This document shows positions 20,934 through 34,030 of a stretch of 64,000 nt of DNA, one piece after another (position 1 is the stretch's first letter; each line of letters begins with the position of its first letter). The stretch lies in assembly GCA_963666275.2 (NCBI GenBank), contig CAXXOA010000001.1:768001-832000 (forward strand). The letters are read 5' to 3'. The DNA is from Oceanispirochaeta sp. (GTDB lineage Bacteria > Spirochaetota > Spirochaetia > DSM-2461). The notes under the pieces were generated by a model, which was not told the DNA's origin, did no database searches, and was given only the letters and a program-made list of their open reading frames with translations. The position numbers and the translations under genes were made by a program.

Positions 20934-20948
20934 TTCTTCAAAACATGA

Positions 20949-21074
20949 ATCTTCGGGGCAGGGTGAGTCTTTTAAAGGCAATTCCCTACCGGCGGTGAAA
21001 GCCCGCGAGTCAGCGCAAGCTGATTGAACTGGTGTAATTCCAGTGCCGACGGTATAGTCCGGACGAGAGAAGAT
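20949..21074 (+). ncRNA. FMN riboswitch (RFN element)
   Basis: atcttcggggcagggtga..attccctaccggcggt..agcccgcga..gccgacggtatagtccggacgagagaagat, upstream of ribD. Confidence 0.95.
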
Positions 21075-21095
21075 AAACGTAAAGTGGATAACCAT

Positions 21096-21131
21096 GCCCC
21101 GGACAGGTCCAATCTGTTCGGGGTTTTTTTT
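21096..21131 (+). terminator. Riboswitch expression-platform terminator
   Basis: gccccggacag..ctgttcggggt followed by a T run. Confidence 0.8.
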
Positions 21132-21219
21132 ATCTGTTCCGGTATTGCCGGATTTGGATAAAATCCTCATTTGCTTTTCTTTTTTTGCGTCACAGCCCCG
21201 TTTCCGGGGAGGAATTTTG

Positions 21220-22332
21220 ATGCATTCATCAGATGAACACTATATGCACAGAGCTCTGAATCTTGCCGCGAAAGGGGAGGGTCGGGTACTTCCGAATCCC
21301 ATGGTAGGGGCCGTTATTGTCCGGGATGGAAAAATCCTGGGAGAAGGATATCACGCCCGGTACGGGGGCATTCATGCGGAGGTGGCGGCTCTCCGGGACT
21401 GCGGGGAAAAGCCCTCGGGAGCAACTCTGTTTGTGACCCTGGAGCCCTGCTGCCACAGGGGGGCGGGGAAGCACAATCCTCCCTGTACGGAGGCCATACT
21501 CGGTTCGGGAATCCGCCGGGTAGTGATTGCCCGTCCTGATCCGAACCGTAAGGTTTCCGGCAGGGGAATCAGAGTTCTCAGAGATCACGGCATTGAGGTG
21601 AACACAGGGGTTCTGGAAAAAGAAGCTGCCGGTCTTAACAGGGTCTACGAAGTGATGATCCGGGAAGAGAGGCCCTATGTGCATCTGAAGGCTGCTGTTT
21701 CTCTGGACGGGTTTCTGGCGGCGGCAGACGGCACATCCAGATGGATCAGCGGCAGTGAATCCCGGGAGAAGGTTATGCAGTTCCGCCGGCATTCCGACGG
21801 TATCCTGACAGGAAGGGGGACTCTCTATGCAGATCTTCCCTCCCTGACCGTCCGGGAGGGGAATGAAGATATTCCCGGGGAGTTCCAGCCGGCTCGAATC
21901 TTTCTGAGTTCCCGGGGAACTTTACCCGGAAACTGGCGGAAAAAGGGCGGACCCGTATTCCTGTACCACAGTCAGAACCACAGTTCAGTTGGTTCTGTAG
22001 ATCCTCAGGTGCATTTTAAACCTGTACCGGAGGATTCCGAAGGCCTGTCGGTTTCTCATATTCTCAAGGATCTTCACAGTCAGAAAATCTACAGACTTCT
22101 TGTGGAAGGAGGTTCCCGGGTGTATGGCTCTTTCCTGCGCAGAGGACTCTGGGACAGACTGACCCTTTTTGTCGCTCCTGTGCTGCTGGGCAGGGGGGTC
22201 CCCTTTTCCGACGGCCTGGAGATCCCGTCCATTGCCTCTAAGCTGCATCTGCAGGATGTATCCTCCTCTGTGAGCGGCAAGGACCTTATGGTGGATGGTT
22301 ACAGGGAGGAGATCAGATGTTTACCGGCCTGA
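21220..22332 (+). CDS. ribD: Riboflavin deaminase/reductase
   Basis: PNPMVGA, HAE, TLEPC..PPC, VEGG; start at ATG 21220 after ggagg. Confidence 0.95.
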   Translation: MHSSDEHYMHRALNLAAKGEGRVLPNPMVGAVIVRDGKILGEGYHARYGGIHAEVAALRDCGEKPSGATLFVTLEPCCHRGAGKHNPPCTEAILGSGIRRVVIARPDPNRKVSGRGIRVLRDHGIEVNTGVLEKEAAGLNRVYEVMIREERPYVHLKAAVSLDGFLAAADGTSRWISGSESREKVMQFRRHSDGILTGRGTLYADLPSLTVREGNEDIPGEFQPARIFLSSRGTLPGNWRKKGGPVFLYHSQNHSSVGSVDPQVHFKPVPEDSEGLSVSHILKDLHSQKIYRLLVEGGSRVYGSFLRRGLWDRLTLFVAPVLLGRGVPFSDGLEIPSIASKLHLQDVSSSVSGKDLMVDGYREEIRCLPA

Positions 22333-22946
22333 TTCAGAATCTGGGACGTCTGGAGGGACGGAGGTCCATACCAGGCGGGGAACTCCTGAGAATCCGTCAC
22401 GGCTTTAAAGAGCCCCTGGCTGAAGGAGCTTCGGTGGCAGTGAACGGGGTATGCCTGACTGTCACGGAAGACAGAAACGCTGTGTTCTCCGCCGAGTGCT
22501 ATTACGAAACAATCCGGAAGACGGCACTTCCTTTCCTGAAAACGGGAGATCCCATCAATCTGGAGCCGGCTCTGGCTGTGAACGGGATACTGGAAGGACA
22601 TCTGGTACAGGGGCATGTCTCCGCGGTGGTCCGGGTGGTGCAGGCTGTCAAAAAGGGCCGGGGACTGAAACTGACGGTTTCACTGCCGGAGAACCGTAAG
22701 GGTCTTATACAGGAAGGATCTGTGGCTCTGGACGGAGTGAGTCTAACCATCGCCTCTCTCGGTGCTGACCGCCTGTCGGTACAGCTCATCGGAGAGACTC
22801 TGGAAAGGACAACACTGCAGTTCCGCAAGCCCGGTGATCCTGTGAATCTTGAAAGCGATCTTCTCCTGCGGGGACAGCAGGAACAGATAGAACAGAAAAA
22901 AGAAACATTGACAATGGGCCGTCTGGCTCAATGGGGGTATGTATGA
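22317..22946 (+). CDS. ribE: Riboflavin synthase
   Basis: MFTGL, SVAVNGVCLT, GHLVQGHV, GSVALDGVSLT. Confidence 0.95.
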   Translation: MFTGLIQNLGRLEGRRSIPGGELLRIRHGFKEPLAEGASVAVNGVCLTVTEDRNAVFSAECYYETIRKTALPFLKTGDPINLEPALAVNGILEGHLVQGHVSAVVRVVQAVKKGRGLKLTVSLPENRKGLIQEGSVALDGVSLTIASLGADRLSVQLIGETLERTTLQFRKPGDPVNLESDLLLRGQQEQIEQKKETLTMGRLAQWGYV

Positions 22947-24169
22947 AATCCGTGAAATTAACAGTGGAAGAAGCGATCCGGATCATTGCCGACGGGGGAA
23001 TGATCATTATGACCGATGATGAAAACAGGGAGAACGAGGGGGATCTGGTGGGTGCGCTCCGTTATGCGGAACCTGATATGGTGAACTTTATGGCTTCCCG
23101 GGCTAAGGGGCTCATCTGCTGCGCCCTGGAGGAGAGTCTCTGCCGGAGAGCCGGTCTGGCTCCTCTTGATACCAATGCGGGGCCCGATGCAATTCACGGG
23201 ACGAAGTTCTGTACTCCCATAGATGCCATTGAAGGGTGCAGTACCGGAATCAGTGCCCATGACCGGTCGGTGACCCTGAAAAGGCTTGTGTCTGATAACT
23301 GCCAACCGGAAGATTTCGCCCGTCCGGGGCATATGTTTCCCTGTATGGAAGCCCAGGGGGGGCTGAAAGCCCGGCAGGGGCATACGGAAGCCACTGTGGA
23401 ACTCTGCCGTCAGGCCGGCCTGGAGGGGGCCGCTGCCATCTGCGAGATCATGGATGATGACGGCACAATGGCCCGGTGGGACCGTCTGAATGAAATGGCC
23501 CGGGAATGGGGTCTTGGGATTCTGACGATTGCGGATCTGATGGCCTGGCTGGAAAAAAAAGAAGAGGCCCAGGCGGCGCCTGTACGGCTTCCCACAGAAG
23601 ATGGACTTTTCCGGATGGACTTTCCCCAACCGGCGGAAGAAGACTCCAGTACCGGAGGGGATCATGTCTGTCTGATCAGAAAGAGCGATGATGCCGATTC
23701 CAAACCCCATCCGGAGGGCCCTCTGGTAAGGATCCACTCGGAATGCCTGACAGGGGATCTTTTCGGTTCACTGCGATGCGACTGCGGTCGCCAGCTGGAA
23801 GAGTCCAGGAATCTGATCGCCCGTGAGGATGAGGGGTATCTGATATACCTTCGTCAGGAAGGACGGGGCATCGGGTTGAAAGCGAAAGCCGCCGCCTATC
23901 ATCTCCAGGATCAGGGACTGGATACACTGGAAGCCAATCTCCGTCTGGGGTACGAAGAGGACCTGAGAAGCTATAAAACAGCAGCCCGGTATCTGAAAAA
24001 GAAGGGAATAGACAGGATCCGTCTGCTCACTAACAATCCCGATAAAATTGAACAGATGGAAAAAGAGGGGTTCTGTGTGACCCGGGTGCCTCTGATTATT
24101 GAATCCCACAGAGAAAATGAATTCTATATGAAAACCAAACAGGAAAAAATGGGCCATCTGTCGGCCTGA
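22943..24169 (+). CDS. ribBA: DHBP synthase / GTP cyclohydrolase II
   Basis: DDENRENEGD, GHTE, RIHSECLTGD..RCDCG, QEGRGIG, LTNNP. Confidence 0.95.
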   Translation: MKSVKLTVEEAIRIIADGGMIIMTDDENRENEGDLVGALRYAEPDMVNFMASRAKGLICCALEESLCRRAGLAPLDTNAGPDAIHGTKFCTPIDAIEGCSTGISAHDRSVTLKRLVSDNCQPEDFARPGHMFPCMEAQGGLKARQGHTEATVELCRQAGLEGAAAICEIMDDDGTMARWDRLNEMAREWGLGILTIADLMAWLEKKEEAQAAPVRLPTEDGLFRMDFPQPAEEDSSTGGDHVCLIRKSDDADSKPHPEGPLVRIHSECLTGDLFGSLRCDCGRQLEESRNLIAREDEGYLIYLRQEGRGIGLKAKAAAYHLQDQGLDTLEANLRLGYEEDLRSYKTAARYLKKKGIDRIRLLTNNPDKIEQMEKEGFCVTRVPLIIESHRENEFYMKTKQEKMGHLSA

Positions 24170-24199
24170 ACGATATACTGACAAGGAGATTATAAGAGT

Positions 24200-24682
24200 A
24201 TGAGTGAAATGGAAAGAGTTATAGAAGGGCAGTTAAATGGAGAAGGTCTGAAATTCACCCTTGTGGTGAGCCGTTTCAATGATCTGATTACCTCCCGTCT
24301 GGAAGGGGGAGCTCTTGACTGTCTGGTCCGTCACGGGGTCAAACGGAAGGATCTTAAGATATTGCGGGTTCCGGGAGCTTTTGAGGTTCCTCTGGCTGCA
24401 GGATGGGCGGCGGAAGAAAAACCCGACGGGGTGATCTGTCTGGGGGCGGTTATCCGGGGAGGGACTCCTCACTTTGATTATGTCTGCGCAGAAGTCTCCA
24501 AAGGTATCGCGGCAGTGACAATGGAGAAAAAACTCCCTGTGGGGTTCGGTATCCTTACCTGTGATACCCTGGAGCAGGCTCTGGAAAGGGCCGGCAGCAA
24601 AGGGGGAAACAAAGGATGGGAAGCCGCCGTTTCCACCCTGGAAATGGCTGTTCTGAAGAAAAATCTTACACAGGAAGTCTAA
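24200..24682 (+). CDS. ribH: Lumazine synthase
   Basis: [28 protein letters not shown]. Confidence 0.97.
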
Positions 24683-24744: not shown

Positions 24745-25455
24745 TCAATAGAATGTGATTGTATGGGTTGTGGGAATACTGTTTGCCACCGCAACATCCG
24801 TAACATTCGCCACAGCTGTACTGGAAGCTGTGGCTCCCACATTATTCAGAGTGCCTGTGGTTGTTCCGATGGAAGTCATTCCGGCGTCCAGGACGTCAAA
24901 AGAGACAGTCACCTGGTCAATGGCTACAGCAGCCGTACTGGTAACATGGTAGCTGATTTCGAGCAGGGTGGAGCTTGTTCCCAGAGCCGCCCAGGAGTCC
25001 ACTGTCACAGTAATATCCCCTGCGGTCACGCTGCCTTTGGGGTTAGTGACGATAGAGAAGGCGGCGTTGATCAGGTTGCTCTCATTCCCTTCCGTATCCA
25101 CCGCCTGCAGTTCCAGTGTATAACTGCCCGCGGCAAGGGCTGCCCCGTCTATGACAAATTCCCATGCGGTCCCTTCGTGAATGAAAGTGGATTCGATGGT
25201 ATCGCTGTAGGCTGTATTGCCTGCAGCATCGTAAACCGTCACATCCAGGGATTCCGGATCATCATCCGGATCATCCACAGTCACGGAAATATAAATATCA
25301 TCTCCCAGGTAGACCGTTTCCGAATAGCTTCGAAAGGAGTAACTGGTTATGGAAAAGCCCGATAGTGCAGGATCCTTTCCTGCGGTGCTGTCGCTGATCT
25401 CACAGGACAGAAAAAGAGCGGGCAATAGAAATAGAATCCAGATACACCTGTTCAT
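24745..25455 (-). CDS. Lipoprotein with Ig-like beta-sandwich domains
   Basis: Lipobox-like LFLSC; GSYTLELQAVDTEGNES; Thr/Val-rich. Confidence 0.65.
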   Translation of the reverse strand: MNRCIWILFLLPALFLSCEISDSTAGKDPALSGFSITSYSFRSYSETVYLGDDIYISVTVDDPDDDPESLDVTVYDAAGNTAYSDTIESTFIHEGTAWEFVIDGAALAAGSYTLELQAVDTEGNESNLINAAFSIVTNPKGSVTAGDITVTVDSWAALGTSSTLLEISYHVTSTAAVAIDQVTVSFDVLDAGMTSIGTTTGTLNNVGATASSTAVANVTDVAVANSIPTTHTITFY

Positions 25456-25512
25456 ACATATAATTATACATCCAGTCGAATAATATGCCGGTTTTTTTTA
25501 AAAAAATATGAG

Positions 25513-25730
25513 TTCCCATCGTTTCAGCTCTATTGGGATATGATTTATTTGAGCGCCCGATGGGAAACCTCTCATGTCGCAGCCATCCTGTCTGCTTCCT
25601 GCGAGCCGCCTCCAGGACTATTCCGGCGTCCCTGCCGGAATACGCTCCATGTATTCGCGTCGTCCTTCCGGTTCGATTCCCATCGTTTCAGCTCTATTGG
25701 GATATGATTTATTTGAGCGCCCGATGGGAA
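25513..25730. repeat. Perfect 54-bp direct repeat (25513-25566 and 25677-25730) including the tRNA-Gly 3' end
   Basis: ttcccatcgtttcagctctattgggatatgatttatttgagcgcccgatgggaa occurs twice, period 164 bp. Confidence 0.95.
25567..25676 (-). ncRNA. Candidate GGA-hairpin RNA (CsrB/RsmY-like) in tRNA trailer
   Basis: 8 GGA in about 85 nt, several in loops: gaatac-AUGGAGC-gtattc, tattccggc-AGGGAC-gccggaata, gc-AGGAA-gc, gcagac-AGGAU-ggctgc. Confidence 0.4.
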
Positions 25731-25787
25731 TCGAACCCACGTCTCCAGCTTGGGAAGCTGGGGTAATAGCCATTATACGACGGGCGC
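25716..25787 (-). tRNA. tRNA-Gly(CCC), CCA not encoded
   Basis: Acceptor gcgcccg/cgggcgc, anticodon arm ccagc-ttCCCaa-gctgg, T arm gtggg-ttcgatt-cccat, U discriminator. Confidence 0.95.
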
Positions 25788-25800
25788 TGGTTCAGTATTC

Positions 25801-25829
25801 AGAATAGCCCCTATAATGGAGCAGGTCAA
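25801..25829 (-). promoter_or_regulatory. tRNA promoter
   Basis: ttgacc-17-tattct on minus strand. Confidence 0.65.
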
Positions 25830-25987
25830 ATAATTTTCTTTTTCAGAATGGGTTTTGTAACAGGGAAATCCCGGGATGGTTTTAACTGTAAGTCTGGAAA
25901 TTGCAAAGATTTTCGCATAAATTTCTGTTTTCCATTGTATGCTAATGTTAACGGCGGTCATTTTTTACAGTTTTAAGGTGGATCAGT

Positions 25988-27778
25988 TTGAAGGCATTTA
26001 ATAATGAAATATATCATCACGCCATTATGAATCTTAATCCTGACGGATTTTTTATAATCTCCACAAAAGGGGAAATCCTGGAGGTGAACAATACCTACTG
26101 CCTTATGTCCGGATACTCCCGGGAGGAACTGATCGGTCAGAAGCTTCAAATCCTGGATGATTTCAATATGAAAGACCTGTTAAGCAAATCCCGGAAAGAG
26201 GCGCTCTACAGGGGAGATGCCGTGCGTTTCAACCGTACCCATACAAAGAAGGACGGCTCGGATCTTCCTGTGGAAATCTCCGCCAGATTTGTAGACCCTA
26301 ATGACAGAGAATACCTGGCGGCTTTCTGCAGGGATCTGACTGAAGTCACGCTCTGCCGGGAGAGAATTCAAAAGCAGGATCAGATCATGAACAATCTGTT
26401 TGATCAGATTCCTGCGGCGGCCTATGAGATCCTTTCCTGCCCTGACGGATCCATCAGGATGCCCTTTGCTTCAAAAAACTTCCGGGATCTCTACGGTCTG
26501 AAAAGCGATGTGAATATCACGGAGGATGCCACCATTGCCTTTCAGACTATTCACCCTGAGGATCTGGACCGGGTTATGGCATCCATGAACCAGGCTATCG
26601 AGGATTACAGCTTCTGGAAATGCGACTTCAGAATCTGCCCTCCGGGGAATGATCTCCGCTGGATACGGGGGCAGGCCACACCGCAGAGGCAGAGCGACGG
26701 CTGCATCCTCTGGAGCGGATTTATGATGGATGTGACGGATCTGAAAGAGACCCACCGGAAGCTTGAAGAACTTTCTGCCCGGCAGAACAGCATTATAGAG
26801 GGGACAGGTGCGGGAACCTGGGAGTGGAATGTTCAGACCGGCGAAGTGATCATCAATCCCCGGGGGGCTGAAATCCTGGGGTATTCTCTCAGTGAAATCG
26901 GCAGGGTAGCGTATAAAACTAATATCTGGACTGATATGGCTTATCTGGAGGATCAGGACAAAGTCGTAACGGTCCTGAATGAACATCTGGAGGCAAAGTC
27001 GGATTTTCTGGACCTGGACTGCCGTATGAGGCATAGAAACGGAACTCCCGTCTGGGTGAACATCAGAGGCAAGGTTATCTCCCGGACAGTGGACGGGGAG
27101 CCTCTGTGGATGTATGGAACAACAGCAGACATCAGCAGAAGAAAAAGTCTGGAGCTTGCCATTCAACAGGGGCTGGAAGAGAAACAGATCCTCCTGAAAG
27201 AGCTCAAGCACAGGGTTGTGAACTCCTTTACTGTGATTCACAGTATGATTTCTATTCTTAAATATTCGGAGAATTCGGGCAGGGAAATGTCAGGCCTTGA
27301 AAAGATTGAGAATAAAATATCCTCTATAGCTCTGATGTACGATCTTCTTTATGCAACGGGCAGTGTGAATTCTGTTTCCCTCGATGAGTATCTGCAGAGA
27401 GTTCTGGATACTTTTCCGGAAGACTTCGGAAGGATCACACTGCTTTCCCGGCTGGATCCCCTGGAGATCGGGGTCGATCAGGCCGTGGCTGTGGGTATCA
27501 TTGTGAATGAACTGCTTACCAACTCCTATAAATACGCTTTTCCGGAAAAAGCACAGGGAATGATTCAGGTCACCATGAAAAAAACAGGAGATTCAGTGGA
27601 GGTTTCTGTTTCTGATGACGGGATCGGTTTTGATCTGAAGCAGGTGCAGAATGAAGGTTCCTTCGGTCAGACTATGATTATGGCTCTTTTAAAACAGCTG
27701 AATGCGGAACTGGAAGTTCAGTACAGCAGGGGAACTTTTGTGAAGTTTGAATTTCCTCTGGAGAAAATAGACAGGTAG
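25988..27778 (+). CDS. Cytoplasmic multi-PAS sensor histidine kinase (HisKA_2/HWE-like)
   Basis: Three PAS/PAC domains, ELKHRVVN, NELLTNSYKYAF, DDGIG. Confidence 0.88.
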   Translation: MKAFNNEIYHHAIMNLNPDGFFIISTKGEILEVNNTYCLMSGYSREELIGQKLQILDDFNMKDLLSKSRKEALYRGDAVRFNRTHTKKDGSDLPVEISARFVDPNDREYLAAFCRDLTEVTLCRERIQKQDQIMNNLFDQIPAAAYEILSCPDGSIRMPFASKNFRDLYGLKSDVNITEDATIAFQTIHPEDLDRVMASMNQAIEDYSFWKCDFRICPPGNDLRWIRGQATPQRQSDGCILWSGFMMDVTDLKETHRKLEELSARQNSIIEGTGAGTWEWNVQTGEVIINPRGAEILGYSLSEIGRVAYKTNIWTDMAYLEDQDKVVTVLNEHLEAKSDFLDLDCRMRHRNGTPVWVNIRGKVISRTVDGEPLWMYGTTADISRRKSLELAIQQGLEEKQILLKELKHRVVNSFTVIHSMISILKYSENSGREMSGLEKIENKISSIALMYDLLYATGSVNSVSLDEYLQRVLDTFPEDFGRITLLSRLDPLEIGVDQAVAVGIIVNELLTNSYKYAFPEKAQGMIQVTMKKTGDSVEVSVSDDGIGFDLKQVQNEGSFGQTMIMALLKQLNAELEVQYSRGTFVKFEFPLEKIDR

Positions 27779-27780
27779 AG

Positions 27781-29913
27781 ATGATGGAACAGAAAACAAT
27801 CCTGCTGGTGGAAGATGACAATCTGATAGCTCTGAGAGAACAAAGGGTTCTGGAACAGAACGGATATCGGGTTATCCATGTCCCGGATGGGGATACCGCC
27901 GTAAAGGAGGGAGCAGGTAATGTTTCTGTAGACCTTATTCTTATGGATATCAATCTCGGAACAGGAAAGATGGATGGAACCGAAGCGGCACAGATGATCC
28001 TGGCTTCCCGGGAAATCCCCATCCTGTTCCTTTCGTCCCATTCAGAAAAAGAGGTCGTTGAAAAAACCCAGGAGATCTCCTCGTATGGTTATATCACTAA
28101 AAACTCTGGAAACACTGTTCTTCTGGCATCCATACAGATGGCCTTCCGCCTCTTTCAGGCCCATCAGGATCTGAAGAGGAACAATACGTTTATACAGTCC
28201 CTGCTTGAAACATCTCCCGACGGTGTCTGGATTGTTTCGGAGGATGGATTGATTATCGACACAAATGAGACCTACTGCAGGATGTCGGGATACACCAGAG
28301 ATGAGCTTATGGGTAAAGATATTTCCGAACTGGATCTGCAGGATTCCTCCTCTGATGTCAGAAACAGGATTCAGGACATAAAGAAAAGAGAACTGGAAAG
28401 GTTTAAATCTCTCCATCTTCGAAAAGACGGCTCCATTCTCCCTGTGGACGTCTCCAGCCAGTTCATTACAAATAATGATGAGAGTTCCTGCATTGTATTC
28501 TGCCGGGATCTCTCCCTGCAGGAGGATCTTACAAGGCGGCTGCAGCAGAGCCGGGACCGGTTTGAACTGGTTCTGAAATCCATTCAGGATACGGTATTCT
28601 CTCTGGACAGGGAAAGGCGGTTTACAGAACTGTACAGTCCCTTCAGCAGAGAGCTGGGCCTGGATGAGCAGGATGTGATTGGAAAGACCTTTGAGGAAGT
28701 GAGCGCTGATCAGCATCTGGCTCAGATCCATAAAAGGCAGTTTGAAAAGGTGATGCAGGGAGATCCCTGTCTCTATCACTGGCAGTTCGGATTCAGGGGC
28801 AGAAAATTCTACAGACAGACCTCTCTGTCTCCCATAAAAGATGAGGTCGGCAACATTATCGGAGCCGCCGGAGTTGATCGGGATCTGACAGACCTCATTG
28901 TGGCCGAGAAAGAGCTGAAAAATCAGAAAGAGCTTCAGAGAACCCTTTTTCAGGAAGTTCCCGGAGCGATCTATCAGTATCAGTTGTTTCCCGACGGGAG
29001 ATCCTGCTTTCCTTTTGCTTCGGAAAATATTGAGAATGTGTATGAGGTGGTCCCCGAGCAGGTCAGAAAAGATGCTTCCCCGGTTTTCAGCCGGATCCAC
29101 CCGGACGATCTGGACCGGGTCAACGCCTCCATAGAAGAGTCACGGAGTAAACTGACAATCTGGACCAGCGACTACAGAGTCAACCTTCCCCTGAGGGGAC
29201 TCCGTTGGGTCAGAGGACGGGCCACTCCTCAGAGGCTGCCCGACCAGAGCACTCTCTGGCATGGCTACATCATGGATATTACAGATCTGAAAGAGGTGGA
29301 AAGGACTATTCAGAGAGGCCTGGAAGAGAAGAAAACGCTTCTCAAAGAGATGCAGCACCGGGTTATGAATACATTCACAATCATCAACAGTATGATTTCC
29401 CTTCTGATGAGCACCGAATCCTCCGCTGATGCGGTTAATGCACTGGGCAGAATTGAAGAGAAAATCCGGTCCATTGCGGCTATTTATGATCTCCTTTATG
29501 ACAGCGGCAATGTGCAGACCCTGTTTCTGGACGAATACCTTCTGGATGTGGCCCGGATGTACCATACCGATTTCGGTAACATCCAGCTGATTCCGACTCT
29601 GGACAGGATTGAAGTCAGTGTCAAACTGGCGATCCCTGTGGGGATTATTGTCAATGAGATCCTCACCAACGCCTATAAATATGCCTTTCCTGATTCCAGG
29701 GCGGGGGTCATCAGGATCAGCATGAAACAGAGCAAGGATTCCGCTCTGATCTGTATTGAAGATAACGGTGTGGGGGTCCGGAATCCTGATCATCCCGGGG
29801 AGTCATCTTTCGGTCATATCATGATGAAAGCCATGCTGGAACAGATCTCCGGTGATATGTCGATTGAAAACAGAGACGGCACTGCCGTAGAGATCCGTTT
29901 TCCCCTCTTTTGA
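27781..29913 (+). CDS. Hybrid REC-PAS-PAS-PAS histidine kinase (HisKA_2-like)
   Basis: LLVEDD, ILMDI, EMQHRVMN, NEILTNAYKYAF, DNGVG. Confidence 0.9.
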   Translation: MMEQKTILLVEDDNLIALREQRVLEQNGYRVIHVPDGDTAVKEGAGNVSVDLILMDINLGTGKMDGTEAAQMILASREIPILFLSSHSEKEVVEKTQEISSYGYITKNSGNTVLLASIQMAFRLFQAHQDLKRNNTFIQSLLETSPDGVWIVSEDGLIIDTNETYCRMSGYTRDELMGKDISELDLQDSSSDVRNRIQDIKKRELERFKSLHLRKDGSILPVDVSSQFITNNDESSCIVFCRDLSLQEDLTRRLQQSRDRFELVLKSIQDTVFSLDRERRFTELYSPFSRELGLDEQDVIGKTFEEVSADQHLAQIHKRQFEKVMQGDPCLYHWQFGFRGRKFYRQTSLSPIKDEVGNIIGAAGVDRDLTDLIVAEKELKNQKELQRTLFQEVPGAIYQYQLFPDGRSCFPFASENIENVYEVVPEQVRKDASPVFSRIHPDDLDRVNASIEESRSKLTIWTSDYRVNLPLRGLRWVRGRATPQRLPDQSTLWHGYIMDITDLKEVERTIQRGLEEKKTLLKEMQHRVMNTFTIINSMISLLMSTESSADAVNALGRIEEKIRSIAAIYDLLYDSGNVQTLFLDEYLLDVARMYHTDFGNIQLIPTLDRIEVSVKLAIPVGIIVNEILTNAYKYAFPDSRAGVIRISMKQSKDSALICIEDNGVGVRNPDHPGESSFGHIMMKAMLEQISGDMSIENRDGTAVEIRFPLF

Positions 29914-30227: not shown

Positions 30228-31268
30228 ATGTCTGCAGAATTATATGAAGTAAGAACATTGAATCTGGATCGTTCTTCTGATCTGGAAAAACTGGAGGCCT
30301 TTCTGAACCGGGAGGGTCTGTCTCTGGAATCCGATCTGGATTATGCCCTCTGTCTCATGGATGGAGAAACGATCGTGGCTTCCGGCTGTGCCTCGGGGAA
30401 TGTCCTGAAGTGCATTGCCGTAGACGGGAGTTATCAGGGCCAGTCTCTGACAAACAAGGTTATCACCTATCTTCGTCTCAGAGCCTATCATAAGGGATTT
30501 TCCTCGCTTTTTCTGTTTACCAAGCCGGGAAATACAGGGATCTTCGAGGATCTTGGATTTTTCTCTGTGGCCGAATCTCCCGATGCGGTCCTTATGGAAA
30601 ACAGACCGGACGGAGTTGAACATTATATATCCTCTCTGGAAAAACCGGAGGATAATGCGCCCTCAGCGGCCCTGGTGATGAACTGTAATCCCTTTACCCT
30701 GGGCCACAGGTATCTTATTGAAAAGGCCTGCCGGGAAAATGCGGTGGTCCACCTGTTTGCAGTGAGCGAAGATCTTTCCGTTTTTCCCTTCGAAGACAGA
30801 ATCCGGATGATCCGGCAGGGGACGGAGGATCTTAAAAATCTCTACATACATGAAGGCCGGGAATATATCATTTCCCGCGCCACCTTTCCCACCTATTTTA
30901 TCAAAGAGAAGAAAATCCTTGATGAATCCCATGCCCGGCTGGATCTGGACCTGTTCGGAAAGAAAATCGGTCCGGCATTGAACATCCGTAAACGCTATGT
31001 GGGAGAAGAACCTTTCTGTCCGGTCACATCCCTTTACAACTCGCTGATGCAGGAAATTCTTCCTCCTCTGGGGATGGAGGTGGAAGTCATTCCCCGTATG
31101 ACGGGAAAGGGCGGAGCGGTCAGTGCAACTAAAGTGCGGAAAGCCATGGCGGATGGAGCTCTGGAGGACCTGAAAGAGTGGGTTCCTCCTTCAACATATG
31201 ACTTCCTTGTCTCAGAGGAAGGGCGGAACATTGCAGAAAAAATCAGGCAGTATGCAGATGCATCGTAG
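30228..31268 (+). CDS. citC: [Citrate (pro-3S)-lyase] ligase
   Basis: LKCIAV, LFTKP, VMNCNPFTLGH, ISRATFPTYF, RYVGEEP. Confidence 0.95.
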   Translation: MSAELYEVRTLNLDRSSDLEKLEAFLNREGLSLESDLDYALCLMDGETIVASGCASGNVLKCIAVDGSYQGQSLTNKVITYLRLRAYHKGFSSLFLFTKPGNTGIFEDLGFFSVAESPDAVLMENRPDGVEHYISSLEKPEDNAPSAALVMNCNPFTLGHRYLIEKACRENAVVHLFAVSEDLSVFPFEDRIRMIRQGTEDLKNLYIHEGREYIISRATFPTYFIKEKKILDESHARLDLDLFGKKIGPALNIRKRYVGEEPFCPVTSLYNSLMQEILPPLGMEVEVIPRMTGKGGAVSATKVRKAMADGALEDLKEWVPPSTYDFLVSEEGRNIAEKIRQYADAS

Positions 31269-31291
31269 TGTATCAAGGAGTTGAAAGAAAC

Positions 31292-31588
31292 ATGAAGATT
31301 GTAAAGACAGGATTAGCGGGTTCTCTGGAATCCAGTGATGTTCTGATTACCGTAGACAGCAACCATGGAAAGGGTCGGGAAATCAGTCTGACCAGTATTG
31401 TAAAACGCCAGTATGGAAAGCAGATCCAGAAGGTGGTGGAAGATACTCTGGATAAACTGGACGTGGGTGATGTGAAAGTCCGTCTTGAAGATAAAGGGGC
31501 CCTGGACTGTACCATAAGAGCCCGTCTGGAAGCGGCTGTCTACAGGGCTTCCGGAAGCAACACCTACCCCTGGGAGAAGCTTGTATGA
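31292..31588 (+). CDS. citD: Citrate lyase acyl carrier protein (gamma)
   Basis: AGSLESSD, DKGALDCTIRAR. Confidence 0.95.
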   Translation: MKIVKTGLAGSLESSDVLITVDSNHGKGREISLTSIVKRQYGKQIQKVVEDTLDKLDVGDVKVRLEDKGALDCTIRARLEAAVYRASGSNTYPWEKLV

Positions 31589-32487
31589 AACTGAGAAGAA
31601 CCATGCTCTATGTTCCAGGCAACAATGCGGGAATGATGAAAGATGCCCATATCTACCGTTCCGATTCGGTTATGTTTGATCTGGAAGATTCTGTTTCGCT
31701 CAATGAGAAAGATACAGCCCGATTTCTTGTATTCAATGCCCTGAGCACTCTGAATTACGAAGGGATCGAAACTGTCGTCAGAATCAACGGCCTTGAGACT
31801 CCCTACGGAGAAGAAGATATTAAAGCCATGGTCAGAGCCCGTCCGGATGTGATCCGGCTACCCAAGACCGAAACCGCTCAGGATGTTCTGGATGTGGAAG
31901 CCCTGATCGCAAGAGAGGAGGAAGCTTCGGGACTGGAAGTGGGAACCATCAGAATGATGGCCGCCATCGAAGGGCCCCTGGGAGTTCTCAATGCCTACGA
32001 GATTGCCACCTCTTCTCCCCGCCTGATCGGGATCGCCCTGGGGGCGGAGGATTTTGTCACAAGCATGAAAACGAACCGGTCCCCCGGAGGAGTTGAGCTT
32101 CTTTTTGCCAGATCCCAGATACTCACGGCAGCCAGAGCCGCAGGGATCTATGCTCTGGATACTGTCTATTCGGACGTCAATAACGAAGAGGGATTCCTTG
32201 AGGAAGTTAAACTGATCAAACAGCTGGGATTTGACGGCAAATCTGTTATTTCTCCCCGGCAGATCCAGCCTCTTCACAATGTTTTCTGTCCTTCCGACAA
32301 GGAAATCGATCACGCCATCCGGGTCATTCAGGCCATCAAGGAAGCGGAAAAAAAGAATTCCGGAGTTATCTCCCTGAACGGAAAAATGGTGGATAAACCG
32401 ATTGTAGACAGGGCCAGAAGGGTTCTGGAAATGGCGAAGGCCACAGGTATCCGCATAAACGAACTGGAGGAGTACTGCAATGAGTAA
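31585..32487 (+). CDS. citE: Citrate lyase beta subunit
   Basis: RRTMLYVPG, FDLEDSV, LGAEDF, GFDGKS. Confidence 0.95.
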   Translation: MKLRRTMLYVPGNNAGMMKDAHIYRSDSVMFDLEDSVSLNEKDTARFLVFNALSTLNYEGIETVVRINGLETPYGEEDIKAMVRARPDVIRLPKTETAQDVLDVEALIAREEEASGLEVGTIRMMAAIEGPLGVLNAYEIATSSPRLIGIALGAEDFVTSMKTNRSPGGVELLFARSQILTAARAAGIYALDTVYSDVNNEEGFLEEVKLIKQLGFDGKSVISPRQIQPLHNVFCPSDKEIDHAIRVIQAIKEAEKKNSGVISLNGKMVDKPIVDRARRVLEMAKATGIRINELEEYCNE

Positions 32488-34030
32488 GTTCATTACAAAT
32501 GCGATTGGAAGAGAAGTCCCTTCCAAACTGAATGATAGAGAGCTCAGTCCTTTTGAAGGGGCTGTAAAACGGACCCCCCTTGTCCGTCAGGATAAGGGAA
32601 ACAGAAATCTGCCCCGTCTGAACAAACTGGTGGATACCATTGAGCAGGCTGTATTGAAGACAGAGCTCAGGGACGGGATGACCATCTCTTTCCACCATCA
32701 TTTCCGGGGGGGGGATTTTATCATCAATATGGTCATGGATGTGATCTCCAATCTGGGAATCAAAAATCTGACTATAGCCTCCAGCTCTCTGACCACGGTT
32801 CATGACGAGCTGATCAGGCATATTGAAAAGGGAACTGTTTCCCAGCTCATTACCAGCGGACTGCGGGGAAAGCTGGCCGAGTTCATCTCGGCGGGAAATA
32901 TGAAGAATCCCGTCCTCTTTCACAGCCATGGAGGCCGGGCCCGGGCAATCGAAATCGGTGAAATCAAGATCGATGTGGCCTTTTTAGGGGTCCCCTCCTG
33001 CGATGTCTACGGAAATGCCAACGGATACTCCGGGCCCTCGGCCTGCGGTTCCCTGGGATACGCCATGGTGGATGCCAAACATGCCAGAAAGGTTGTGCTC
33101 ATAACCGATTACCTGACCGAATATCCCAACACTCCCTTCAGTATCGACCAGGACCTTGTGGATTATATTGTCAAAGTGGATGCTGTGGGTGATCCCAATA
33201 AGATCAGTACAGGTGCCACCAGAATTACAAAGGATCCCCGGGATCTTCTGATCGCCCAGAATGCGGCGGATTTCATTGCGGCCAGTCCCTATTTTGAAGA
33301 CGGTTTCTCTCTTCAGACAGGATCGGGGGGCGCCTCTCTGGCGACAACCCGTTTTCTGACGGAATACATGGAGAAGAGAGGTATCACGAGCAGCTGGGCT
33401 CTAGGCGGAATTACAAGTCAGATGGTGAAGATGCACGAAGCGGGGCTCATCAAAAAACTTCTGGATGTCCAGAGTTTTGATCAGGATGCCATCCGTTCTA
33501 TCGGTGAAAATCGTCTCCATACTGAAATTGATGCGTCCTACTATGCCAACCCCCTGAACAAGGGCTGTGCTGTCAATAAACTGAATGTGGTTATCCTCAG
33601 CGCCCTGGAAATCGATCTGGATTTCAATGTAAATGTTCTCACCGGTTCGGACGGAGTCATCATGGGGGCTTCGGGAGGCCATTCGGATACCGCCGTCGGG
33701 TCGGGTCTGTCCGTTGTGGTGGCTCCCCTTATCCGGGGAAGGACTTCCACGGTGACCGATAAGGTCCTGACGGTGGTGACTCCCGGGGAGAGCGTGGATG
33801 TTTTCGTTTCTGACCGGGGAATCGCCATCAACCCCCGCCGAAAGGATCTTATGGACTACTTCAGTTCCGTAAGGCTGCCTTTCTACACCATGCAGGATCT
33901 TCTGAACAAGGCGGAACGCCTGGTCGGCCATCCTGATCCCATCGAGTTTACAGACAGGATCGTCGGGCTTGTGGAGTACCGGGACGGAACCATTATCGAT
34001 GCGGTCCGCCAGGTGAAGGCTCTGGACTGA
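32480..34030 (+). CDS. citF: Citrate lyase alpha subunit
   Basis: TISFHHHFRGGD, HSHGGR, QTGSGG, GASGGHSDT. Confidence 0.96.
   Translation: MSKFITNAIGREVPSKLNDRELSPFEGAVKRTPLVRQDKGNRNLPRLNKLVDTIEQAVLKTELRDGMTISFHHHFRGGDFIINMVMDVISNLGIKNLTIASSSLTTVHDELIRHIEKGTVSQLITSGLRGKLAEFISAGNMKNPVLFHSHGGRARAIEIGEIKIDVAFLGVPSCDVYGNANGYSGPSACGSLGYAMVDAKHARKVVLITDYLTEYPNTPFSIDQDLVDYIVKVDAVGDPNKISTGATRITKDPRDLLIAQNAADFIAASPYFEDGFSLQTGSGGASLATTRFLTEYMEKRGITSSWALGGITSQMVKMHEAGLIKKLLDVQSFDQDAIRSIGENRLHTEIDASYYANPLNKGCAVNKLNVVILSALEIDLDFNVNVLTGSDGVIMGASGGHSDTAVGSGLSVVVAPLIRGRTSTVTDKVLTVVTPGESVDVFVSDRGIAINPRRKDLMDYFSSVRLPFYTMQDLLNKAERLVGHPDPIEFTDRIVGLVEYRDGTIIDAVRQVKALD

Follow-up and report, generated by a model that had tools for sequence, protein, structure and literature searches.

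A tRNA-Linked Repeat Family of Spirochaetes with a Predicted Low-Capacity CsrA-Binding Trailer RNA

Introduction

The tRNA-linked repeats (TLRs) of Escherichia coli have been known since 1978 and are described as having no known function (PMC8144298). Ten loci carry a total of 22 copies (Egan and Landy, 1978; Rudd, 1999; as cited in PMC8144298). A TLR lies in a tRNA or rRNA operon right downstream of a gene, and its 3′ end is a copy of the last 18–19 bp of that gene (PMC8144298). RrA, RrB, and RrF, of rrnA, rrnB, and rrnD, are RNAs of 115–173 nt that arise by terminator read-through and bind CsrA. RrB binds it in vitro at about 100 nM, and the effects of RrB in E. coli cells are modest and not clean in direction (PMC8144298). 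The 19 tRNA TLRs of E. coli are predicted in the same source not to bind CsrA.

CsrB and CsrC carry 13–22 GGA triplets (PMC6546359). In structures of RsmE, affinity is high for the hexaloop and 10- to 1000-fold lower for pentaloops, and the core bases are irreplaceable (PMC4005645). Some CsrA proteins tolerate a change of GGA to GAA (PMC13443453). Among spirochaetes, the CsrA of Leptospira binds in a GGA-dependent manner, FliW is named as its likely antagonist, and one CsrA-related noncoding RNA is cited (PMC8668096).

The locus described here is in a window of 64,000 nucleotides, the whole stretch of DNA that was analyzed, from Oceanispirochaeta sp. (assembly GCA_963666275.2, contig CAXXOA010000001.1, positions 768,001–832,000). 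A sequence-only reading of this window had proposed that the RNA trailing a tRNA-Gly is a candidate sponge for CsrA.

The tRNA-Gly(CCC) Locus

The 110-nt core sits exactly between two identical 54-nt direct repeats, of which the tRNA portion is 16 nt, and it starts inside an anti-T arm (Table 1). The anti-T arm is the reverse complement of 25722–25737, which is the T arm of the host together with the start of the 3′ strand of its acceptor. The sequence-only reading had overlooked both the direct repeats and the 16-nt inverted copy of the T arm. The repeat begins 29 nt behind the tRNA, and the locus consists of one full unit and one truncated unit. The consensus scan of 25400–26000 found no terminator, which agrees with the earlier claim that none separates the repeat from tRNA-Gly. 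The promoter scan found no match between tRNA-Gly(CCC) and the core. Two sigma-70-like sites were present in 600 nt with 1.4 expected, so the promoter match of the tRNA is weak when taken alone.

Table 1. Features of the tRNA-Gly(CCC) locus, in positions of the window
Feature	Position	Strand	Remark
tRNA-Gly(CCC), host gene	25715..25787	-	tRNA called
Sigma-70-like promoter match for the tRNA (TTGACC, 17 nt, TATTCT; 9/12)	25801..25829	-	
Direct repeat copy 1, 54 nt	25677..25730	-	tRNA 3′ end beginning in the T loop, terminator-free 29-nt trailer, and first 9 nt of the anti-T arm
Anti-T arm, 16 nt, 5′ strand of closing helix P1	25670..25685	-	Host-matched across copies
Structured core of the tRNA-linked repeat, 110 nt	25567..25676	-	
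Helix P2 (25662-25666 with 25614-25618), encloses P3 and P4, purine-rich GGA/GGA internal loop at flank	25614..25666	-	
Hairpin P3, 4 bp, 11-nt loop with GA at start and GGA at end	25642..25660	-	
Hairpin P4, 9 bp, hexaloop AGGGAC (25628-25633), predicted best CsrA-type site	25619..25642	-	
Apical hairpin of arm P5, pentaloop AGGAU (25585-25589), imperfect stem, predicted weaker CsrA-type site	25579..25595	-	
Direct repeat copy 2, 54 nt, identical to copy 1	25513..25566	-	Second tRNA 3′ end (first 9 nt close P1), trailer, and truncated anti-T arm
Seven consecutive U behind a stem with a long loop, possible non-canonical transcript end	25500..25506	-	Not called by the terminator scan

The same DNA is contained in sequencing run X23 with 0 differences over 25537–25706. 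Identical DNA in other runs indicates that the locus is not an assembly artefact, with the caveat that X23 may be the source sample. Three RNA runs have reads over the tRNA only; these runs are not tied to Oceanispirochaeta sp. and are uninformative on the core. In 22 RNA-type runs, only a small fraction of the sequence words was present. As a single anecdote, positions 25508–25512, after the truncated second anti-T arm, form the complement of the core's end and look like a fold-back copy from the new context; such a complement is absent at the Met3 locus.

Downstream of the repeat is a minus-strand ORF for a 236-aa lipoprotein-like protein with no Pfam match (24745–25455). Upstream and on the other strand (25988–29913, plus) are a PAS/HisKA_2 kinase and a similar hybrid kinase. 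At the gathering score, Rfam identified only the tRNA and, elsewhere in the window, an FMN riboswitch (20945–21078). The riboswitch lies ahead of ORFs (21094–24682) that appear from their translations to be a riboflavin operon, ribD, ribE, ribBA, and ribH. A candidate citrate lyase cluster, citC, citD, citE, and citF, was named in the same way (30228–34030).

GGA Triplets

The sequence-only reading had counted eight GGA triplets on the tRNA strand, and this count was confirmed, with the first G on the minus strand at 25669, 25665, 25648, 25631, 25624, 25613, 25599, and 25588. Genome windows have a mean of 2.8 GGA and about 0.8% of them have at least eight. Dinucleotide shuffles of the stretch itself have a mean of 5.1, with a borderline P of 0.056 for eight or more. 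The stretch is purine-rich, so that eight GGA are rare for the genome and borderline for its own composition. Its fold z-score is -2.07.

Five GGA hairpins had been proposed as well. Two were found in the predicted fold, AGGGAC (pair probability 0.998) and AGGAU (0.55–0.90), and the other three each had a pair probability of 0.0. One of these, gaauac-AUGGAGC-guauuc, shares bases with the AGGGAC hairpin, and the other two, cc-UGGA-gg and gc-AGGAA-gc, were rejected in the ensemble of the released element. According to the comparative structure, the GGA at 25665 and 25624 are in helices (three in helices, if the GGA of P1 at 25680 is counted), those at 25669, 25613, and 25599 are in purine-rich internal loops, and that at 25648 is on the 3′ side of the P3 loop. 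The apical hairpin loops hold 25631 and 25588. The P3 loop ends in GCA or another sequence instead of GGA in about one-third of the copies.

A Repeat Family behind tRNA and tmRNA Genes

The genome was searched with a profile built from eight cores and with a covariance model, R1, built from ten. A total of 12 copies were identified, each immediately downstream of a tRNA or tmRNA gene and on its strand. They lie at two adjacent Met loci, at a third Met locus, and at the loci of Asp, Gly(GCC), Leu(CAG), tmRNA, a Cys remnant, and Gly(CCC). Neither search found a strong copy away from tRNA and tmRNA genes in this genome. The other tRNA trailers, in which it had been suggested that homologues be sought, do contain copies with covarying stems and conserved loops. 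What had been taken for a single small RNA gene is a repeat family instead, which persists and spreads without CsrA. By a heuristic of a hairpin followed by a U run, 72 of 93 first units, which are those within 130 nt of a tRNA, are behind a terminator.

R1 gave 251 matches in 40 of 61 related genomes. The 166 nonduplicate copies analyzed were mostly the stronger ones among the matches listed (150 of the 251). In a draw of 151 genomes from the phylum, nine had matches. Occupancy is patchy, with 1–25 copies per genome within the genus and the element at only three of 16 other tRNA-Gly(CCC) loci (none of three in the genus). The hosts comprise at least 20 anticodon types plus tmRNA.

Both ends of the unit match its own host. 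In the 93 first units, the anti-T arm matches its host over a mean of 11.5 nt, compared with 5.9 nt for hosts of another amino acid, and the direct repeat matches over a mean of 15.2 nt, compared with 5.2 nt for other hosts. The direct repeat has a median of 18 nt (at least 15 nt in 63 of 93), and its start is position 56 or 57 of the T loop in 52 of the 58 repeats that were scored. Units can be in tandem: two at the Met and Asp loci, six in L006, and 11 in genome G020. The last of these is an array behind tRNA-Met with units of about 180 nt each (L151, G020:C1:565326-567067).

Copies without a called tRNA are mostly behind tmRNA (five of 20 loci scanned), tRNA fragments, or contig ends, and a few are without host sequence. 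At L079, L105, L111, L125, L134, and L142, repeats are found behind partial tRNA or tmRNA 3′ fragments that resemble displaced island ends, which suggests that some units were in place before an island integrated and are now cut off from their promoter. Two loci of genome G028, L054 and L136, have repeats with tRNA-type ends right after a DDE transposase element and appear to be split from arrays. Three tRNA-Gly repeats have the same layout with other cores and are not matched by R1 or by the second model, R2 (L040, G000:C2:974700-975150; L024:1452-1600; L027). Short, core-less anti-T sequences behind a terminator, at tRNA-Arg(TCT) and tRNA-Arg(CCG) of G000 (C2:1445580 and C1:2236573) and in L038:400-440, are apparent remnants or truncated units. 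A second small motif, which starts with CCCTTCGG or CCCTTAGG, was seen in or beside repeats (L105, L110, L099, L100, L080, and L033:725-760) and was twice inserted in the P4 loop.

Strong matches in named records were all from spirochaetes, including Oceanispirochaeta, Alkalispirochaeta, Salinispira, and Spirochaeta. A pattern scan gave at least 33 bits in 38 of 39 spirochaete-titled loci; none of 41 other loci and none of four viral loci exceeded 25.3 bits. The pattern is specific to one subtype, so the scan does not bound the family. Cores behind different tRNAs are up to 89% identical. Among 108 units, 36 have their nearest neighbor at the same host of another genome and 61 have it at a different host. 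These counts are compatible with inheritance in place as well as with movement from locus to locus.

A Conserved Fold

The core has a conserved fold of four covarying helices. In 95 copies outside the training set, aligned by fitting to R1, 85.7% of cells are paired and double changes occur in all 35 pairs. A structure-blind alignment of 173 copies recovered P1, P2, P4, and the P5 arm by mutual information. The outer P5 helix of R1, which is only 60% paired, was replaced by the helices from this alignment. The structure built into R2 is out of register in P3 (24% paired) and in part of P5, which leaves R2 weaker than planned.

When copies that share a tRNA type as host are compared between species, there are 201 double changes and 101 broken pairs, and 6% change at 13 invariant positions, both counted over 33 non-independent pairs. 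The loop letters C, A, G, and A are 92–99% conserved and most stem columns are variable. The arms are broken by purine-rich loops, GNA opposite GNA and GA opposite GA, which we take to be sheared G-A pairs and which here hold three of the eight GGA. Beside the loops, G-U exceeds A-C by 26 to 10 on the tRNA strand (P = 0.011). This excess indicates that the tRNA strand is the folded one, and it fits RNA and single-stranded DNA equally. In L125:292-416, the stem arms of P4 are intact and the loop between them is reverse-complemented, as would be expected after a template-switch inversion.

Apical Loops and CsrA

In 173 copies there are 299 apical loops: 52 ANGGAN hexaloops, 170 AGGAN pentaloops, 70 ACGAN pentaloops, and seven others. 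Two apical loops are present in 120 of the 173 copies and one in 47. At least one CA(N)GGANG is present in 157. Only the 52 hexaloops are of the high-affinity class, and the tRNA-Gly(CCC) copy has one hexaloop and one GGA pentaloop. The bar on core-base swaps in the RsmE structures (PMC4005645) would mean that the ACGAN loops do not bind; the tolerance of GGA-to-GAA in some CsrA proteins (PMC13443453) would make their binding possible. The toggle position of the P5 loop, which is the first G of its GGA, is G in 84 cases and C in 58 and never A or U (142 cases). No covarying or pseudoknot partner of this position was found, the best corrected mutual information being 0.15, with its own closing pair.

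The presence of csrA in the genome, which had been named as a first check, was confirmed. There is a single csrA, in a row flgL-fliW-csrA, and the nearest solved structures to its product are CsrA homologs of the longer type. The protein has R44 and N55. Of 520 stem-mounted CA(N)GGANG hairpins in this genome, 15 fall in the 2,435 bases of TLR loci, and three of five two-hairpin clusters are TLRs, including the tRNA-Gly(CCC) copy.

The gene csrA is present in 51 of the 61 relatives and in 148 of the 151 phylum genomes, and in these samples its co-occurrence with the element is uninformative. Genomes G001, G012, and G032 have the element without csrA. They also lack fliW and keep flagellin, which makes an assembly gap likely, and they were not counted as losses.

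Loop Loss in a Family without csrA

In family f13 of the same class, csrA was found in none of 81 genomes, each at least 90% complete, and among five tested, none had fliW or flagellin. R1 finds the element in eight of the 81 genomes, and all eight loci are behind tRNA or tmRNA with both ends host-matched. In L270 and L272, of one genus, the P4 and P5 stems are whole and the loops are AGUAG and UAAC. L273 likewise has a whole P4 stem, with a loop, AUGGCG, that is altered at the GGA. Four copies have no P4 and a tetraloop on P5, and they keep the P3 loop, the junction, and the GGA/GGA internal loop. Only L271 (G249:C3:1224399-1224529) keeps both loops. This sole fully looped copy resembles those of csrA-bearing genomes and may have arrived recently.

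A model of the P4-less form, R3, gave 54 matches in 10 of the 81 genomes. Of the 35 examined (33 distinct), 29 are behind a same-strand tRNA or tmRNA of 14 types, and their stems covary. With R1 and R3 together, the element is in 13 of 81 genomes and in six of 26 genera. A stem-mounted A(N)GGAN loop was found in two of 37 f13 copies examined and in 174 of 197 copies elsewhere, which include all distant classes sampled. The 197 comparison copies contain those of three incomplete genomes without a csrA match and named records of untyped csrA status, and the looped copies were detected with models that contain the loops. As a control, R3 was run on the 61 relatives and gave one match there, a normal looped copy. 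In other csrA-less genomes the element was not found: f7 (csrA in none of six) had no match with R2 (none of six) or R3 (none of five), and five further genomes had none with R2.

The loop loss is suggestive only, since f13 is one host lineage with about three independent changes. Flagella were also lost in f13, so any co-lost factor, or drift, could explain it. With these limits, the loss of the loops in a csrA-less family would favor CsrA binding elsewhere and is suggestive of it. The loop-less form is found over 14 host types, which indicates that the loops are not needed for spread.

Formation of the Units and Folding of the Precursor

No recombinase, transposase, or reverse transcriptase was found as a regular neighbor among 58 ORFs (the longest on each side of the larger loci); there were single IS66, DDE, and group II intron matches. 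The genome has seven Y1 transposase matches, none at a repeat locus. Between anti-T arms and hosts there are 16 G-U and 16 A-C, that is, no wobble bias, and in L028 both ends keep a T stem that is older than that of the present host. From these two observations, the ends look as if they were copied once from DNA. Template switching alone can produce compensatory stems (PMC8794818). The near-universal T-loop letters at both junctions could be the handle for template switching or for T-loop recombination.

In equilibrium folding of the uncut precursor, a 16-bp helix of the anti-T arm and its host displaces the cloverleaf in every fold that includes the anti-T arm, with a probability of about 1 at this locus; the same invasion of the host T arm is predicted for 80 of 93 copies. 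It should thus capture the host T arm in the uncut precursor, and either fast processing would be required or read-through transcripts would be lost.

Interpretation

The explanation favored here has a reasonable probability: the locus is a TLR of a spirochaete family, a gene-less unit of about 165 nt that follows the steps below and yields a low-capacity CsrA-binding trailer RNA. The unit settles at the T loop of tRNA and tmRNA genes, duplicates the 3′ end of the host, and carries an anti-T copy. Its ends would be copied from host DNA when the unit is formed, by T-loop-anchored recombination or template switching and with no enzyme of its own. Transcription would start at the tRNA promoter and reach the unit directly at tRNA-Gly(CCC) and, in most copies, by reading through a terminator. 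Processing at both tRNA 3′ ends, the true one and the duplicate, would release an RNA of about 165 nt, as for RrB of E. coli. The anti-T arm would pair with the duplicate 3′ end, close the fold, and display the two apical loops. A single CsrA dimer could hold both loops, one on each of its two RNA-binding faces, and selection would keep the loops where CsrA exists. The outcome would be a low-capacity CsrA-binding trailer RNA tied to tRNA synthesis and not a CsrB-like sponge.

CsrA binding is plausible because csrA is present, the stems covary, the loops are conserved, and the loops are mostly lost without csrA. RrB is a precedent for such binding. This much of the earlier claim can be kept, with two likely sites and not eight. 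The two apical loops are likely to bind CsrA in vitro; a measurable titration of CsrA in the cell is doubtful. The tRNA-trailer RNA probably binds one CsrA dimer, on an element that is able to live without CsrA. A wider reading has a low probability. The tRNA-homing RNA elements may be kept as growth-coupled docks for one CsrA dimer each, and the FliW-type Csr system would then have RNA antagonists across many tRNA operons. ACGAN would count as another CsrA-type site, so far unrecognised, and in hosts that lose CsrA the element would shed its loops and continue to spread.

It is unlikely that the repeat is only a selfish, non-autonomous element whose resemblance to CsrA targets is incidental. 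In that case its fold and loops, as RNA or as single-stranded DNA, would be recognised by a mobilising enzyme or by some host factor that is not CsrA. The variable copy number and occupancy, the close identity of cores behind different tRNAs, the decayed copies and those left behind tRNA fragments, and the strict G/C toggle without a covarying partner would all suit such an element. So would the anti-T arms without G-U bias, the older T stem of L028, and a related core in a dispersed element of G024 with terminal inverted repeats. Against it, the form that spreads in f13 is the loop-less one and loop loss coincides with csrA loss, and copies behind the same tRNA type have twice as many double changes as broken pairs.

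The strong form of the sequence-only reading, a true CsrB- or RsmZ-like sponge that titrates CsrA in step with stable-RNA synthesis, is quite improbable. The CsrA with R44 and N55, the CA(N)GGANG of most copies, the loss of loops without csrA, and the two GGA loops at tRNA-Gly(CCC) with no terminator before them are in its favor. There are, however, only two sites per RNA, the Rfam scores for RsmY are far below cut-off, and most first units are behind a terminator. The element is also in few of the phylum genomes while csrA is in nearly all, FliW is encoded beside csrA, and even RrB has modest effects of unclear direction in E. coli (PMC8144298). A tRNA-precursor switch is very improbable. In this reading, read-through transcripts would be routed to decay once the anti-T arm had taken over the host T arm, except where fast processing, the duplicated 3′ end, or bound CsrA diverts it. 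The displaced cloverleaf in the folded precursors and the terminator that would shield the tRNA in most copies agree with it, but equilibrium folding ignores co-transcriptional order, tertiary structure, and processing, the anti-T/host pairs have no wobble bias, and the host of L028 has drifted away.

The family offers hundreds of natural variants on a firm fold, and f13, as a natural experiment, allows two jobs of the element to be told apart. Its scaffold and host-copied ends are enough for spread, and the apical loops follow the presence of csrA. It is now directly testable whether lineages with FliW also bind CsrA with RNA and how a gene-less unit rewrites its ends for each new tRNA.

Comparison with Known Systems

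The stems closed by C-G with A(N)GGAN loops are shared with CsrB/CsrC and RsmX/Y/Z. These are stand-alone genes with many sites, whereas the spirochaete repeat has two sites and tRNA-derived ends and belongs to a repeat family. The CsrB, RsmY, and RsmZ sponges have their own promoter and terminator and are under two-component control. A cmscan search of Rfam, which had been proposed as a check, was run; no family matched the repeat at the gathering score, and there were sub-threshold matches only. Within clan CL00106, RsmY scored 9.8 bits against a cut-off of 57 at the tRNA-Gly(CCC) copy, and at 14 other loci the best scores were 22.3 of 57 bits for RsmY and 16.6 of 44 bits for PrrB_RsmZ.

MITEs such as ERIC and integrative elements that target tRNA genes are gene-less, patchy, and structured, with a junction in the T loop. 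The spirochaete repeat is like them in these respects. It differs from a MITE in that its inverted ends are specific to the host and not to the family, and in that no strong copy was found away from tRNA and tmRNA genes in its own genome. Family-specific terminal inverted repeats and dispersal were found only in the core-sharing element of genome G024. This element (for example, L170:1351-1680) is about 290 nt long, has terminal inverted repeats, and has 74 matches in G024, with short forms in G011, G016, and G020. Its core, with ACGGAU and AGGAG loops, is related to that of the spirochaete repeat, and there are shorter versions without the core.

RrB is a TLR behind a terminator with GGA hairpins, including an AGGAC loop, and the spirochaete repeat shares the TLR design and the GGA hairpins. 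RrA, RrB, and RrF lie behind 5S rRNA at a conserved locus, whereas the spirochaete repeats are behind tRNA and tmRNA; for the former, expression and CsrA binding have been shown, and the latter is known here from sequence. R1 scores 12.5 bits on rrB (E 0.007 on 4.3 kb), the best among three E. coli loci, and R2 has no match on rrB at E ≤ 0.01. With only 12.5 bits, homology of rrB to the spirochaete core is not established.

Rfam RtT (RF00391) had no match in the window stretch at E ≤ 10 or in 14 loci at E ≤ 5. Neither the spirochaete repeat family nor the loss of loops without csrA was described in the literature searched, which was mostly open-access. The repeats appear to be a TLR variant without an earlier description in Rfam or in the literature searched. 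The core differs from that of the E. coli repeats, with R1 scores no higher than 5.6 bits at tyrT, and the wide range of hosts is a further difference. The lysT-lysQ and tyrT/rttR TLRs of E. coli, like the spirochaete repeat, have an inverted T-arm copy and a direct repeat from the T loop. Both are found directly behind a tRNA, in tandem units, and sometimes behind a terminator, and the spirochaete repeats are almost certainly TLRs.
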